A DNA stretch of 64,000 bases from Gammaproteobacteria bacterium (lineage in GTDB: Bacteria > Pseudomonadota > Gammaproteobacteria > GCA-002705445 > GCA-002716945). Every line of letters begins with the position of its first letter. Position 1 is the first letter of the stretch. A model generated the notes under the pieces. That model was not told where the DNA came from and searched no databases. It worked only from the letters and a program-made list of their open reading frames with translations. This document shows, piece by piece, positions 59,262 to 64,000 of the stretch. Location of the stretch: positions 7,608 through 71,607 of the forward strand of contig JAQWOB010000003.1 of the NCBI GenBank assembly GCA_029246085.1, written 5' to 3'. The position numbers and the translations under genes are program-made.

Positions 59262-59804
59262 ATGGATAGAACTATTTGGTTTGTAAGACATGCTCAATCA
59301 GAATATAACAAGAAAAAACTTTTTACAGGATGGCATGATCCTGATTTAACACAACACGGTATACATAAAGCACATGATCTAAAAGAAGAGCTTTATGGAG
59401 TCATATTTGATCATATCTATTCTTCACCTCTAAAACGAGCACTGTCCACAGCGCAAATATTATCTGATGATAAAGACATAAAGATAGATGACAGGCTTAA
59501 AGAGAGAAGTTATGGCGACTGGTCAGCCAAGAACAAAGAAGAGGTGAAGTTATCTGAAGGTGTTGATAATTACTATGCAGCTAGAAGAGGATGGGAAACT
59601 AGTCCTCCCAATGGTGAAAGCTTAAAAGATGTAAGCTTGCGTGTTAAACCCTTTATTGATGAGTTGCCTGAATCTGGAAATATTCTTGTGGTTTCTCATG
59701 GGAATACAATTCGTGCAATATCTGTATTATTTGGCGTGAATACAGAAAGCAATGTTAACTCTTTCGAGATTAAAGTTGGGACTGTGTTTAAGGTAAAAAG
59801 CTAG
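59262..59804 (+). CDS. Histidine phosphatase (phosphoglycerate mutase-like) family protein.
   Basis: 180 aa with the N-terminal catalytic RHG motif region (IWFVRHAQSEYN) and a C-terminal His (VSHGNTIRA). Confidence 0.75.
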   Translation: MDRTIWFVRHAQSEYNKKKLFTGWHDPDLTQHGIHKAHDLKEELYGVIFDHIYSSPLKRALSTAQILSDDKDIKIDDRLKERSYGDWSAKNKEEVKLSEGVDNYYAARRGWETSPPNGESLKDVSLRVKPFIDELPESGNILVVSHGNTIRAISVLFGVNTESNVNSFEIKVGTVFKVKS

Positions 59805-60020
59805 TATCTCTACTAGCTCTTTCATACGGAGGTGTATATGAGTATATTAACATATAATAATATAAACTCAATACAAATTTTACCCACGAAATCTCACATA
59901 CTCAAAATATATCAATCATATAATTAGTCCTTAATGAGAGACATTCTTAAAATAGAGAGCATGACCTATTTACCTTAATAGATAGCAAAAGTTTAACAAT
60001 TGGCACGGTATATGCATTGT

Positions 60021-60052
60021 TATATATAAAAAGAAAATCCTTTTTATATATA
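60021..60052. repeat. Perfect 13-bp inverted repeat with a 6-nt spacer (TATATATAAAAAG-aaaatc-CTTTTTATATATA) in a long ORF-free region.
   Basis: Read directly from the sequence. The 376-nt convergent intergenic region around it (59805-60180) has no ORF of 60 aa or more on either strand. Confidence 0.5.
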
Positions 60053-60180
60053 TGATGGTTAAAACTAGGTCAAACTCCTCAAAGTTATCTCTCCCCGAGG
60101 ATCTGGTTTTAGCTTCATCCTTAACTAGTAAGAATTAATTATAATTAAACAAAGTACTTATGTTTAGATGATTTAAAAAT

Positions 60181-60954
60181 TTATGGATTCATAGAAGTTA
60201 TTTTTTTATGAATACCTGTCCATAAATCATATCGGATCTCTATGCTCTTAATTGCCGCATCCAAAGCTTGATTGTATTTTAAATCATTATTTTCATATGA
60301 CTTTTCAAACAGTATTAATGATAATGGCCCATGCCTATTTGAATCTATATCAATATGTCTTTTTAAATAAAGTTTCAGGGAATCATATTTTGAAGACAGG
60401 CCAATTTTTGCTAATAGTTGCTCAAACATTCCAGGAAGAGTTGTTTCTCTACCATATGTGAATAATGCAGATATAATATGGAGCTCATTTGTATTCAGTA
60501 ATTTGTTATTTTCATTTAAAAAATTAAAACATTCAGGCTCTAGATCGTATTTATCAAAGCCCTTTAGTTTATTTCTTGAAGTATCATTTATTATAGACTC
60601 AATTATATCTGTTTTTGCATTAATATTTTTCATGCTAGATAGATATAAATCAAAATGTGACATAAAAATGCCATCTGAAATTTCATCTGATTCTTCAGCC
60701 ATAACTATTTCATTTATTAATCTTGTTATTCCATTTTTAGAAAAACTATTTGGATACCAAGGTGTTGATGATGGACAAATTATACTCTGTAATTTTTTTA
60801 CAATGCACATAAAATCCCAGACCGCAAAGACATGAAACTCCATGAATATCTTTAAATGATCTTCTGTAAATACATAACTCTTAGAGAGTAATGGATGATT
60901 ATTCAACGTATCTATTTTTTTTTTGAGTATAAGTTCCTTCTTCATTATTTTCAC
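60181..60954 (-). CDS. DUF3050 family protein (predicted haem-oxygenase-like fold).
   Basis: 257 aa. N-terminal HVFAVWDFMCIVKKLQ and INEIVMAEESDE segments match my recollection of the DUF3050 consensus. Several spaced His/Glu/Asp residues are present. Confidence 0.65.
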   Translation of the reverse strand: MKIMKKELILKKKIDTLNNHPLLSKSYVFTEDHLKIFMEFHVFAVWDFMCIVKKLQSIICPSSTPWYPNSFSKNGITRLINEIVMAEESDEISDGIFMSHFDLYLSSMKNINAKTDIIESIINDTSRNKLKGFDKYDLEPECFNFLNENNKLLNTNELHIISALFTYGRETTLPGMFEQLLAKIGLSSKYDSLKLYLKRHIDIDSNRHGPLSLILFEKSYENNDLKYNQALDAAIKSIEIRYDLWTGIHKKITSMNP

Positions 60955-61025
60955 ATCATTCCTTTGAGTTAGATTATTACTAGATGTTAAATATATTATA
61001 TTATTTAGTATTTTTAAATATCAGT

Positions 61026-61060
61026 CACTGGCAAGAAAATACTTAATCTTCTTGCCAGTG
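61026..61060. terminator. 12-bp perfect hairpin (CACTGGCAAGAA-11 nt-TTCTTGCCAGTG), between the TonB-dependent receptor stop and the DUF3050 start. Possible terminator or attenuator.
   Basis: Read directly from the sequence. On the transcribed (minus) strand it is followed by an A/T-rich tract rather than a clean U-run. Confidence 0.4.
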
Positions 61061-61070
61061 GCCTTATATG

Positions 61071-63032
61071 TTAGAAGTTATATCTCATGGATACATCAAT
61101 CCCATAATTTGCTCCTTGAACGGGAACATGATCTTTGATCAGAGATGAATGGTTTCTAATAGTTTTATTTAGAATATTATTCCCATAAAGATTGAATACT
61201 AAATCTTTATTAGAATCATAAGTAATCTTTTTAGAATATCCTATATCTAAATCAAGGTGTGAATTTGTCTTAGTCTCAATAGAAGACATATCACCTTGAG
61301 ATTCTGTATATATAAGATTTGCGTAATAAGTATCACTTTTATTATTTTCATACTTTAGAGATAAAGTATTTTTAGCAGGGCTTAATCGAGGTATATATGT
61401 ATTATCATCAAATACACCCGAAATATCGTCTCTACTCAATGTTACTAATAGGTCACCATTTCCTATCATGTATGAGCTAGACATTGATATTTCATAGCCT
61501 TGCATAACTGCACTTTTTTGACTCCAAGTTGCATCAGTCTTGCCACTAGTAGTCGTAGACTCATCTTTCAAGTAAATAAAATTATTAATATTATTTCGAT
61601 ATAAGTTCAAGTTCATATCTATATCATTAAAATTATATTCTAAATTTAATTCAATATTTCTTGATACTTCTCTTGAAATTCTATTATTCCCACGTTCATA
61701 TCTTGAAGTAGCTCCATGCACGCCGTTTGCAAACAGTTCAGCTACAGATGGACTTCTAGATATATGGGCATAATTCATATTATACATGAATGATTCTCCA
61801 AGATTAGCAGCAAAACTTGTACCAAAGCTCAAGGATGTATCTCCATATCTTTGGTTATCACTATCTCTGGAATTAGATTCATATCTACCAGCAAAATCTA
61901 TTTCATATGGTCTATTTTTAGTCCTTATGAAATAAGATATTGATCTTTCATATGCCTCTGATGATGGCAGATAAGCGCCTGTCATCGGAGATTTAGTATG
62001 ACCATACTGAAGGAGAAATCTTTTTTCATATAACTCATCATCTAAATTAAAATTGAAATCAAATGATGTTCTATTGCTGTCTAAAGATGCAGATCCATCC
62101 TCTTCATGCTCTTTTAAAAAAGAGTTTGAATTTCTAAAAGAATAGTCAATAGAATTAAAAAGTGGAACTGTATTAAATTTACCTTTTAAAGTATATGTTT
62201 CAGTTTCAGTTTTTGTAAATAACCTATGTTCTTCCTCTTCTTCATGATGCCCCTCTTCTTCTTCTTCAGCATGATATGGAAGACCATAAACGCCATCCGT
62301 ATTCTCAAAAGAGAAGCCAAAGTATCCCCACTCTCTTGGAAAAGATAGACCAAAACTAGTGTTTTGATTTTTATGGTCTGAGTTAGCAAGTGTGCTTAGC
62401 TCTAACCCTGTATCCTCGCTCAAAAGAGAGCCATTGGGTATATTATAGTTATCCATATGTTTGTTATTAATAGAAAAGAATATATTTGCATTTAAGTAGT
62501 TTTTCTTAAATAAAAAATTATGTCCATATCCATTATTAACTGTTGTGTAATCAAGCTTTATGACTTCATTGTCATATTTATTTTCGCTTATGATGTCTGT
62601 GATGACATTAATAATGCCGCCACTAGTTCCACCACGATTAAATATTGACGAAGGTCCTCTTAATATTTCTATATGTGAAATATTATTCAAATCAATATTA
62701 TTTATATGATCCCCGCTCAAATTACTGAGATCATTTATAGGTATATTATTTGAAAGCAATCTTGTTCGATTGCCAGTTAAACCTCTTATTACAGGCTGCC
62801 CAACAGCTGCACCATAATCTGCATTTGATAATCCGGATAATCCTTTGAGGTTATCCCCGATACTTCTGTTAACATTTATCTCTTCATTTTGCATGATATG
62901 CAGCGGATATTTACTCTCACTAATTGAGTTAGTAAATTCAGATGATGTAACACTGATATCACTCAGTTCTTCAGCTGATACTACATTAATGCATACAAAT
63001 AATAGAGAAACTATGAAAATGTTTTTAAACAT
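61071..63032 (-). CDS. TonB-dependent outer-membrane receptor with a His/Glu-rich loop (ZnuD-like candidate metal receptor).
   Basis: 653 aa. Signal peptide (MFKNIFIVSLLFVCINVVSA|EE), plug-domain motif (ILRGPSSIFNRGGTSGGIINVIT) and a C-terminal aromatic terminus (MRYNF). Internal motif HAEEEEEGHHEEEEEH. Good RBS (AAAGGAGACACAAATG). Confidence 0.9.
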   Translation of the reverse strand: MFKNIFIVSLLFVCINVVSAEELSDISVTSSEFTNSISESKYPLHIMQNEEINVNRSIGDNLKGLSGLSNADYGAAVGQPVIRGLTGNRTRLLSNNIPINDLSNLSGDHINNIDLNNISHIEILRGPSSIFNRGGTSGGIINVITDIISENKYDNEVIKLDYTTVNNGYGHNFLFKKNYLNANIFFSINNKHMDNYNIPNGSLLSEDTGLELSTLANSDHKNQNTSFGLSFPREWGYFGFSFENTDGVYGLPYHAEEEEEGHHEEEEEHRLFTKTETETYTLKGKFNTVPLFNSIDYSFRNSNSFLKEHEEDGSASLDSNRTSFDFNFNLDDELYEKRFLLQYGHTKSPMTGAYLPSSEAYERSISYFIRTKNRPYEIDFAGRYESNSRDSDNQRYGDTSLSFGTSFAANLGESFMYNMNYAHISRSPSVAELFANGVHGATSRYERGNNRISREVSRNIELNLEYNFNDIDMNLNLYRNNINNFIYLKDESTTTSGKTDATWSQKSAVMQGYEISMSSSYMIGNGDLLVTLSRDDISGVFDDNTYIPRLSPAKNTLSLKYENNKSDTYYANLIYTESQGDMSSIETKTNSHLDLDIGYSKKITYDSNKDLVFNLYGNNILNKTIRNHSSLIKDHVPVQGANYGIDVSMRYNF

Positions 63033-63072
63033 TTGTGTCTCCTTTATAAATTAATTTAAATTAAATTGAATT

Positions 63073-63360
63073 CTATAAAAGAGGCGGTGCCCTAGAACTA
63101 AATGGAGATTTTTGATTGTTACTTATTAAAAAAGGTTGTAAGTATGATGCAATGAGCAAAATACCAAGAATTTGTAAAATTAAATTTGAGCCTATGATAG
63201 GAAGAGCAGAATTGGAGCTCAAATGACATGTTATACACTGATGACTCTCTTCATTCTCATGCTCATCAAAATGTAAGTGAAACTCACTTATCATCTGTGA
63301 TGAAATAAACAAAGCTAAGACAATTTTAACAATTAATTTTACAGATTTATTTTTTGTCAT
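63073..63360 (-). CDS. Small His/Cys-containing membrane protein upstream of the TonB-dependent receptor (DUF2946-like metal-binding candidate).
   Basis: 95 aa with an N-terminal TM/signal, the motif EFHLHFDEHENEESHQCITCH, and a second hydrophobic segment. The family assignment is an inference from motif and position. Confidence 0.5.
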   Translation of the reverse strand: MTKNKSVKLIVKIVLALFISSQMISEFHLHFDEHENEESHQCITCHLSSNSALPIIGSNLILQILGILLIASYLQPFLISNNQKSPFSSRAPPLL

Positions 63361-63378
63361 ATATTTGTCTATTTAAAA

Positions 63379-63452
63379 TGGGCCCGGGAGGACTCGAACC
63401 TCCGACCAATGGATTATGAGTCCACTGCTCTAACCAACTGAGCTACAGGCCC
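63379..63452 (-). tRNA. tRNA with anticodon CAU. This is either elongator tRNA-Met or lysidine-modified tRNA-Ile2; the variable loop resembles E. coli ileX.
   Basis: Reverse-complement gives GGGCCTG-TA-GCTC-AGTTGGTTA-GAGC-A-GTGGA-CTCATAA-TCCAT-TGGTC-GGAGG-TTCGAGT-CCTCC-CGGGCCC-A, which folds into a canonical 74-nt cloverleaf. CCA is not encoded. Confidence 0.9.
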
Positions 63453-63454
63453 GA

Positions 63455-63925
63455 TTATTTATTAAAAAAACTCAATTTCTTTTTTTTTAAATACTTTTGA
63501 TGATATTCTTCAGCTATCCAAAAATTACCATTGAGCTCAATTGTGGTAACTATCTTATTGTTAAACTTGTTCCTATTCAATTCTTTTATTTTATTTTCGC
63601 TAGAAAGCACTTCGAAATCATTTTGACAAAATATTGCTGATCTATATTGTGTCCCAAAATCTGGTCCTTGGCTGTTTAGTGTCGTAGGATCATGTATTTC
63701 AAAAAATAAGTCCAAGAGTTGATCATAAGTAATTATTTCTTTATTATAAAATACTCTAACTGCTTCAGCATGAAATGTATCTCCTTGGCATATGTCTTTA
63801 TATGTTGGATTATTGGTTTTCCCACCAATATAGCCAACCTCTGTTCCAATGACACCTTCCGCAGAACTAAATTTATCTTCAATACCCCAAAAACAACCAG
63901 CTGCCAATATTGCTACATCACTCAT
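63455..63925 (-). CDS. msrA: Peptide methionine sulfoxide reductase MsrA.
   Basis: 156 aa with the N-terminal active site AILAAGCFWGIE and the conserved GYIGG...YxxICxG region. Confidence 0.93.
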   Translation of the reverse strand: MSDVAILAAGCFWGIEDKFSSAEGVIGTEVGYIGGKTNNPTYKDICQGDTFHAEAVRVFYNKEIITYDQLLDLFFEIHDPTTLNSQGPDFGTQYRSAIFCQNDFEVLSSENKIKELNRNKFNNKIVTTIELNGNFWIAEEYHQKYLKKKKLSFFNK

Positions 63926-64000
63926 TATCTAGGAAACTTTTTAGATTGTGGGCCCTAGACGGATGTCTAAGTTTTCTTAATGCTTTTGCTTCAATTTGTC

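Follow-up and report, generated by a model that had tools for sequence, protein, structure and literature searches.

We analysed a window of 64,000 nucleotides (nt) of DNA from a Gammaproteobacteria bacterium (GenBank assembly GCA_029246085.1, contig JAQWOB010000003.1, positions 7,608 to 71,607 of the forward strand), with emphasis on a TonB-dependent receptor gene and the small open reading frame (ORF) that precedes it. The minus strand carries between 60181 and 63925, in this order, msrA (63455-63925), a tRNA with a CAU anticodon (63379-63452; called by ARAGORN and matched by the Rfam tRNA model at 75.5 bits), an ORF of 95 amino acids (63073-63360), the receptor gene (61071-63032; 653 amino acids, with Pfam plug and barrel domains), a terminator-like hairpin (61026-61060) with a 12-bp perfect core, CACTGGCAAGAA/TTCTTGCCAGTG, and a gene of the DUF3050 family (60181-60954). 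The elements of this block described below lie on the same strand. A sequence-only reading had proposed that the tRNA, the small ORF, the receptor and the DUF3050 gene belong to one metal-uptake module. All four are present on the minus strand where they had been placed, as is the perfect hairpin directly past the receptor stop codon. The functional unit, however, likely consists of two genes only, the upstream ORF (uORF) and the receptor, reaching from 63360 to about 61026, and the terminator-like hairpin likely marks its 3' end. The uORF is most likely a cis-acting regulatory leader of the CruR/CutF type that is predicted to stall the ribosome.

The extent and character of the uORF follow from the ORF call, its hydropathy and comparison with homologous uORFs. 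It lies 40 nt upstream of the receptor on the same strand and starts with a Lys-rich N-terminus, followed by a hydrophobic stretch (Kyte-Doolittle mean 2.18, residues 7-21). A second hydrophobic segment occupies residues 55-69 (both have means of about 2.2), and between the two sits the candidate metal-sensing segment HLHFDEHENEESHQCITCH (residues 28-46, 63223-63279), which holds the CxxC motif C42-ITC45 (63226-63237). The C-terminus reads R90-A-P-P93-L-L-stop. The RAPP motif, encoded by the codons AGG GCA CCG CCT (63082-63093), stands two codons ahead of the stop codon and is separated from the CxxC motif by 44 residues.

These features recur upstream of related receptors. In an alignment of the window leader with the small ORFs preceding receptor homologues of 76%, 62%, 48% and 33% identity (alignment A1), H30, C42 and C45 are invariant, and all five leaders finish with S/P-R-x-P-P a few residues short of the stop codon. 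The leader of the 33%-identity receptor relative was found with a single Cys and no CxxC. We then gathered 80 species-level loci with the receptor profile and scanned the region upstream of each receptor for ORFs on the same strand, of at least 40 amino acids, ending in R-x-P-P plus 1-8 residues. Such a uORF precedes the receptor in 82 of the 91 related loci, against 1/91 in the reverse complement of the same stretch and 2/91 in the downstream stretch, which bears out the earlier suggestion of a conserved, metal-related pair made up of the small His/Cys ORF and the receptor. The residue x is A in 64 leaders, G in nine, S in six and D in three, and wherever CxxC is present its spacing to RxPP is 37-45 residues. 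The arrangement of uORF and receptor recurs in SAR86, SAR92, Porticoccaceae, Woeseiaceae and Betaproteobacteria. Leaders of receptor relatives with 42-48% identity (L009:5742-5972, L015, L019, L060) have no hydrophobic segment and share a conserved, small-zinc-finger-like CxxCGK.H...F I.EHHC pattern 37 residues ahead of R-x-P-P. This pattern suggests that in these clades sensing would take place in the cytoplasm, via metal-dependent folding.

The window uORF escapes the common family models. It has no Pfam match even at E<=10, DUF2946 (PF11162; gathering score 23.7 bits, which it does not reach) included, and no NCBIfam match; its 50% relative likewise has no PF11162 match at E<=10. The assignment of the small protein to DUF2946, which had been proposed from the sequence alone, thus failed in the hidden Markov model search, and the Bordetella DUF2946 system named with it proved the right lead. 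Leaders of remoter receptor relatives do match PF11162 at 13.7-18.1 bits, which is below threshold, with the alignment at the end of the profile. In a comparison with hhalign, the window subfamily matched the SAR86-type uORF subfamily with 97% probability over residues 28-94, and profile comparison connected the SAR86-type subfamily to the DUF2946-like subfamily that has these sub-threshold matches with 96% probability. An exhaustive profile search with the leader alignment against 1.84 billion representatives returned nine matches (E<=1e-3), mostly close full-length relatives, and no bridge from the leader to annotated families; word-based searches also returned only a handful of close relatives. 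All six full-length leader relatives that were retrieved have the His-rich segment and CxxC, and five of the six end in R[AS]PP. A localisation segment, a Cys/His motif, a C-terminal Pro-rich arrest site and a position ahead of a metal gene define the functional class of CruR and CutF (PMC9973294). Judged by these features, with its hydrophobic N-terminus as a putative localisation segment, the uORF fits that class, yet it lies outside Pfam family PF11162.

The end of the uORF is also predicted to pair with the ribosome binding site of the receptor. Folding places a hairpin that sequesters the Shine-Dalgarno (SD) sequence at 63039-63083. Its 5' arm, CUCUUUUAUAGA (63083-63072), comprises the end of the Pro93 codon, Leu94, Leu95, the stop codon and one extra base, and its 3' arm, UUUAUAAAGGAG (63050-63039), holds the receptor SD sequence AAGGAG (63039-63044). 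The probability that the SD sequence is paired with the uORF end is 0.79, compared with 0.36 for shuffles of the arm, of which 0/100 were as good, and the junction ranks first in SD pairing among the 13 same-strand junctions in the window. Across 62 distinct loci that were folded, this pairing exceeds the arm-shuffle mean in 57 and is equalled by at most 5/100 shuffles in 36. The arms vary in sequence among lineages (CCUCUUUUAUAG/UUAUAAAGGAG, CCUCCAGUUAAUUAA/UUAAUUAACAGGAGG, CCUCUGGCC/GCUAGAGG), and the variation extends to GC-rich betaproteobacterial loci with spacers of 90-100 nt. Since the pairing recurs while the sequences of the arms differ, the helix between SD sequence and leader looks selected. 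Three features together, RAPP at the C-terminus, its conserved distance from CxxC and the pairing of the last codons with the receptor SD sequence, indicate a regulatory arrest peptide and not the accessory metal-binding protein that had been supposed. The sequence-only reading had overlooked the RAPP motif.

The arrest and the metal response of the uORF are predicted from its sequence and by analogy with CruR of Bordetella pertussis. CruR has a CxxC motif and RAPP three residues from its C-terminus, with 45 residues between the motifs, a spacing that is conserved within 1-2 residues, and it needs RAPP for expression (PMC9426467). It arrests with both Pro codons in the P and A sites, and RAPP and RGPP are the readily arresting forms, RSPP and RDPP being partly permissive (PMC12992588). 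During translation of the uORF, the N-terminal hydrophobic segment and the His/CxxC segment would become exposed outside the ribosome. Once the RAPP codons had arrived at the peptidyl-transferase centre, translation would stall, the P and A sites being occupied by the two Pro codons as for CruR. The stalled ribosome would cover the next 12-15 nt or so, which form the 5' arm of the hairpin, so that the SD sequence is freed and the receptor translated. If the cognate metal is plentiful, it would bind the His/Cys segment that has just emerged, and folding or pulling would release the arrest; the ribosome would then terminate, the hairpin re-form and the receptor be switched off. We expect the receptor to be on when metal is scarce and off when it is plentiful because CruR governs an uptake receptor, and the footprint that SD unmasking requires fits an arrest at the Pro-Pro codons of the kind described for CruR. 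Unmasking of an SD sequence by a stalled ribosome is the tested mechanism for CutF-cutO.

Transcriptional control of the receptor has little space in this locus. Only 18 nt separate the 3' end of the tRNA from the start of the uORF, too few to accommodate a promoter. A search of the flanks for metal-regulator boxes had been recommended, and it detected no Fur box near the locus and no Zur box within 59700-64000; the latter search used the E. coli-type consensus, which may not apply to this organism and which elsewhere in the window gave nine matches, below the chance expectation of 15.5. Because promoter space is absent and no Zur or Fur box lies nearby, control of the receptor is probably wholly post-transcriptional, which suits a streamlined genome. 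In all contigs the end of rpoD and msrA have 8 nt in common (L001:9108-9115; just past window position 63925). Therefore, a single transcript may cover rpoD, msrA and the tRNA, and perhaps extend to the leader-receptor pair.

The receptor itself has a signal peptide ending in VSA/EE, then a plug and then a barrel. Its best NCBIfam match is ZnuD (NF038289) with 179 bits, a score that does not reach the cut-off of 950 bits. ZnuD is the best NCBIfam model for every family member tested, with up to 678 bits in Acidovorax. In the Protein Data Bank (PDB), ZnuD (4rdr) is matched with E=1.4e-32 by the single protein and 6e-68 by the family profile (residues 39-653), and it is the sole full-length match of the receptor family; for the next matches, Cir, PfeA and BtuB, the best-scoring stretch covers the plug only. 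OprC is matched with E=5e-4 by the single protein, again in the plug only, and with E~1e-10 by the family profile over short partial stretches, and the OprC/NosA-type model TIGR01778 is not among the NCBIfam matches of the receptor. By its sequence the receptor thus belongs to the ZnuD family, and the NCBIfam and PDB profile matches group it with ZnuD and not with siderophore or B12 receptors, in line with the proposal of a metal-regulated receptor.

The zinc ligands of ZnuD are Asp99, His100, Glu340 and His499 (PMC4557270). Their counterparts in the receptor are D108 and H109 in the plug (62706-62711), E308 (62109-62111) and H439 (61716-61718), all located by alignment to ZnuD and all invariant in 73/73 family members. 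The mature receptor contains no Cys, which excludes a copper site of the OprC type. A His/Glu-rich loop had been noted in the sequence, and this stretch, HAEEEEEGHHEEEEEH (residues 254-269, 62226-62273), indeed aligns where the His/Asp-rich loop 3 of ZnuD starts (alignment A2 and the ZnuD alignments); it contains an internal direct repeat. The receptor would bind a free divalent metal ion via Asp108, His109, Glu308 and His439, aided by the His/Glu-rich surface stretch. Zn(II) and copper seem almost equally possible as this metal, with a very slight lean towards Zn(II), and a metal other than these two is unlikely. The neighbourhoods of related receptors point both ways on the metal. A MerC-like permease follows just downstream of the receptor in 9/69 loci (e.g. 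L016:4775-5170) and may be its inner-membrane partner, a second TonB-dependent receptor lies downstream in another 9/69 loci, and HMA and CsoR-like genes occur in one receptor locus. A FUR-family gene is found upstream in 6/78 loci. One of these is Zur-like, in a locus of a Nitrosomonas metagenome-assembled genome (L061:1544-2020) that has no RxPP leader, a hint that such receptors may be controlled either by Zur or by a leader.

The closest studied counterpart is CruR-BfrG of B. pertussis, in which the uORF is of the DUF2946 family (Roy et al. 2022, PMC9426467). In both systems the first gene is small, encodes a CxxC motif and RAPP 2-3 residues before the stop codon with 44-45 residues between the motifs, and lies directly upstream, on the same strand, of a TonB-dependent uptake receptor; the export-type segment at the N-terminus of CruR has a putative counterpart in the hydrophobic N-terminus of the window leader. 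Both have a region with more C than G in the 3' half of the uORF, and the expected logic, in which low metal leads to stalling and turns the receptor on, is the same. The window differs in having no PF11162 match, no third gene for a PepSY_TM protein and a His-rich metal motif, and perhaps also in the ZnuD type of its receptor; no paper was found that names BfrG together with ZnuD. Its spacer is AT-rich and measures 40 nt instead of 162. Since this short spacer forms a predicted SD-sequestering hairpin, unlike that of CruR-BfrG, translational control is probable here, rather than or besides Rho-dependent control. In this respect the locus resembles CutF-cutO of Rhodobacter capsulatus (Ozturk et al. 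2023, PMC9973294; bioRxiv 10.1101/2025.02.05.636593), where the leader is DUF2946-like, combines a signal peptide and a Cys motif with a Pro-rich stall site at its C-terminus and is followed by a short intergenic region, and where stalling melts a stem-loop that shields the SD sequence of the next gene. There, however, the downstream gene cutO encodes a detoxifying multicopper oxidase that is switched on by copper, whereas the window receptor serves uptake and is expected to be switched off by metal, and the stall motif of CutF is PPP and sensitive to elongation factor P instead of RAPP.

Other known systems resemble single parts of the unit. The receptor shares with ZnuD of Neisseria meningitidis (PDB 4RDR; PMC4557270, PMC2895646) full-length homology, the Asp/His/Glu/His site, the His/acid-rich stretch in loop 3 and the absence of Cys/Met copper ligands. 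It differs from it in the NCBIfam score (179 bits against a cut-off of 950), in length (653 residues against 748 in the crystallised chain), in a His/Glu-rich loop 3 that has no Cys pair and in having no Zur box in the region searched, control by the leader peptide being proposed instead. The RAPP/RGPP arrest peptides (ApdA, ApdP, SecM-like; PMC12992588) have the C-terminal RAPP near the stop codon and the position upstream of the regulated gene in common with the window leader, whose hydrophobic N-terminus may correspond to their localisation signal. ApdA, ApdP and the SecM-like peptides sense Sec/YidC activity, while the presumed sensor of the window leader is its metal-binding His/Cys segment. 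Leaders of the RAPP class upstream of TonB-dependent receptors have been reported as general in Gram-negative bacteria (PMC12992588). The arrangement was believed at first to be uncharacterised, but CruR-BfrG has been studied experimentally (PMC9426467), and RAPP-ending uORFs before TonB-dependent receptors are reported to be widespread (PMC9973294, PMC12992588).

Taken as a whole, the reading of the locus as a RAPP arrest leader that unmasks the SD sequence of a ZnuD-like receptor, with independent neighbours, seems to us probable, although a number of observations weigh against it. The metal evidence conflicts, as the receptor is zinc-like and both studied leader prototypes sense copper. CxxC is absent from 25 of the 82 uORFs, which keep His/acidic residues or a single Cys only. 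The window uORF has no PF11162 match of its own, and the direct link of its subfamily to the DUF2946-like subfamily spans only the last 14 residues. As regards the hairpin, two short-gap junctions elsewhere in the window score nearly as high, so that the control within the window is weakly discriminating, the fold z-scores are modest (-1.5 to -1.8), and the SD-pairing signal may be partly built in because Pro codons (CCN CCU) are by their nature able to pair with GGAGG. Lastly, the 3' half of the uORF is richer in C than in G (63043-63240; C 17-24%, G 6-12%), opposing the local strand bias. This region resembles the rut site of cruR, and Rho-dependent attenuation may act instead of or alongside SD unmasking. 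In its strict form, as in Bordetella, a ribosome stalled at RAPP would mask rut and block Rho, giving read-through into the receptor, metal would release the ribosome and permit Rho termination ahead of the receptor, and the SD hairpin would be incidental. This mode is the experimentally supported one for CruR-BfrG. Long spacers have been argued to characterise it (Roy et al.), whereas the spacers of the marine loci typically measure 18 to about 100 nt, and the SD-sequestering helix is kept across lineages in spite of differing arms. We therefore regard a purely Rho-dependent switch as unlikely here; the two mechanisms are not mutually exclusive. It is very unlikely that the 95-residue product is a stable bitopic inner-membrane metal-binding protein, either a chaperone or a partner of the receptor, in which RAPP is incidental. 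The His/Cys loop between two hydrophobic segments would suit such a protein, and CutF was originally conjectured to be a copper chaperone. Against it, R-x-P-P is held 1-8 residues before the stop codon in the 82 loci while the remaining sequence, the length and the hydrophobic segments vary, the leaders of some clades (L009, L019) are fully soluble, tetrapeptides of the RxPP type rank among those that bacterial proteomes avoid most strongly (PMC12992588), and in vivo neither the CruR nor the CutF protein can be detected.

The remaining alternatives concern the neighbours of the leader and receptor. The sequence-only reading joined the small protein, the receptor and the DUF3050 protein in one tRNA-flanked module for metal or metal-chelate acquisition, with the DUF3050 protein processing the imported ligand. 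The genes are indeed adjacent and on the same strand in this species, and enzymes of the HamA family, to which the DUF3050 protein is related, take part in making fragin and other metal-binding diazeniumdiolates. A comparison of related genomes does not uphold the linkage outside this species. There is no DUF3050 homologue near 88 related receptor loci (80 species-level relatives within about 4 kb, plus L006-L013), the 76%-identical receptor relative (L006) runs straight into the histidine phosphatase gene, and DUF3050 relatives of about 50% identity occur in the order rpoD-msrA-tRNA-DUF3050-histidine phosphatase with no receptor. Moreover, the terminator-like hairpin and a promoter-like site (60995-61024) stand between receptor and DUF3050 gene, and no context of ham/pvf/mgo or nonribosomal peptide synthetase (NRPS) genes is present, the neighbours being the receptor, the histidine phosphatase and tatC. 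We consider the three-gene module highly improbable: the absence of DUF3050 from related receptor loci, its presence in the same slot of relatives that have no receptor, and its separation by hairpin and promoter mark it as an independent neighbour outside the uORF-receptor unit. Between msrA-tRNA and the tat/his genes lies a slot of variable content, where the DUF3050 gene and the tRNA are each genes in their own right. That this slot is a tRNA-targeted islet from horizontal transfer, as the position beside a tRNA had hinted, seems improbable too. Its contents do differ between related lineages, which hold DUF3050 only, four other genes with the uORF-receptor pair, or the pair with DUF3050, and this part of the suggestion stands. 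The signs of integration, in contrast, are missing: the 17-nt 3' end of the tRNA occurs once in the window even with up to three mismatches, no significant repeats flank the block, no integrase-sized ORF is present among its ORFs, all of which are accounted for, its GC content (0.27-0.32) is like that of the neighbouring 30 kb with no compositional break, and both flanks consist of core genes in conserved order.

On the preferred reading, an arrest leader that unmasks the receptor SD sequence, the window uORF belongs, by its sequence features, to a known class of metal-sensing RAPP leaders ahead of TonB-dependent receptors, as a divergent member that Pfam does not recognise. The modestly new aspects are the ZnuD-type receptor, the short spacer with its conserved SD-sequestering helix and the common occurrence of the pair in SAR86, SAR92 and Porticoccaceae genomes. 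RAPP leader control of metal uptake, so far studied in Bordetella and Rhodobacter, would thus appear to be active in very abundant streamlined marine bacteria, whose leaders are too divergent for recognition by Pfam. The receptor that goes with the leader in the window has a zinc site of the ZnuD type and not a copper site of the OprC type, and the conserved pairing of arrest codons and SD sequence predicts purely translational control. Annotations usually overlook small ORFs of this kind or call them 'hypothetical', and the receptors are labelled 'iron complex receptor', which misleads trace-metal readings of ocean metagenomes. A more speculative and rather doubtful extension is that the leader is a nascent-chain sensor for zinc rather than copper across SAR86, SAR92, Porticoccaceae and some Betaproteobacteria. 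A metal-folded His/Cys segment at the tunnel exit, zinc-finger-like in some clades (CxxCGK.H...EHHC), would then release the RAPP arrest and close the SD hairpin. If the sensed metal is indeed zinc, the leader would be the first arrest peptide known to respond to this metal and would provide streamlined genomes with a means of zinc homeostasis that does not depend on Zur. The engineered zinc-finger/SecM force-sensor experiments, which were reportedly carried out by Nilsson et al. in 2015, would then have a counterpart in nature.

The DUF3050 assignment was confirmed by PF11251 (E=5.8e-63), a family now named HamA_HO-like in Pfam. In public contigs the protein is called as 254 amino acids with an ATG start at 60945, which is the likely start. 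The predicted haem-oxygenase-like fold is supported by homology to HamA of Burkholderia cenocepacia (9VWB; E=2.1e-41 for the single protein over residues 15-249, and 3.5e-81 for the profile). The family had been described as uncharacterised, but it has a solved member in HamA, a mono-iron, 2-oxoglutarate-dependent haem-oxygenase-like enzyme (9VWB, PMC12522199). The HamA iron ligands E84, H96 and H199 align with E87, H100 and H200, which are invariant in alignment A8. The window protein differs from HamA in its gene context, which has no ham/pvf/mgo NRPS cluster and no link to the receptor outside this species, and in Arg207 (60334-60336), which replaces Glu206 of HamA, discussed as occupying the position of a second metal. 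The clade of the window protein reads DSNRHGP where HamA and flavobacterial relatives read D(S/G)(G/D)EHGP. In L006 the terminator-like hairpin is missing along with DUF3050. An apparent deletion of DUF3050 in L001 was merely a scaffold gap of Ns.

The tRNA was called tRNA-Met by ARAGORN and in the sequence-only reading. The CAU anticodon is present, but the identity is more likely that of a lysidine-modified tRNA-Ile2. The molecule has the features C4-G69, C5-G68 and G27-U43, the E. coli sequence that matches it best over the full length (81% identity) is annotated as tRNA-Ile, and the same tRNA directly follows msrA in three related lineages (L006, L094 and L096). It is a conserved core gene. 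In L006 (1696-5446) the four extra genes between tRNA and leader are two small ORFs, a glycerophosphotransferase-like and a sulfatase-like gene.

The same receptor and arrangement occur in four further marine metagenome contigs, and a fifth contig of only 2.3 kb holds the end of the uORF, the receptor and the start of DUF3050. The block is preceded upstream by rpoD, and beyond DUF3050 follow, in convergent orientation, the histidine phosphatase gene, tatCBA and his genes. The ORF-free region of 376 nt that had been pointed out is real and lies at 59805-60180, between the convergent DUF3050 and histidine-phosphatase genes. Rfam searches of the whole window, together with a permissive scan of 59750-61100, matched only the tRNA and two chance microRNA models, with no credible match in this gap, and no conserved small ORFs or repeats were found in it besides a likely histidine-phosphatase terminator. 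A hairpin with a T-run near 59805-59835 resembles this phosphatase terminator. In the relatives L094 and L096 the corresponding gap measures only 70-75 nt.

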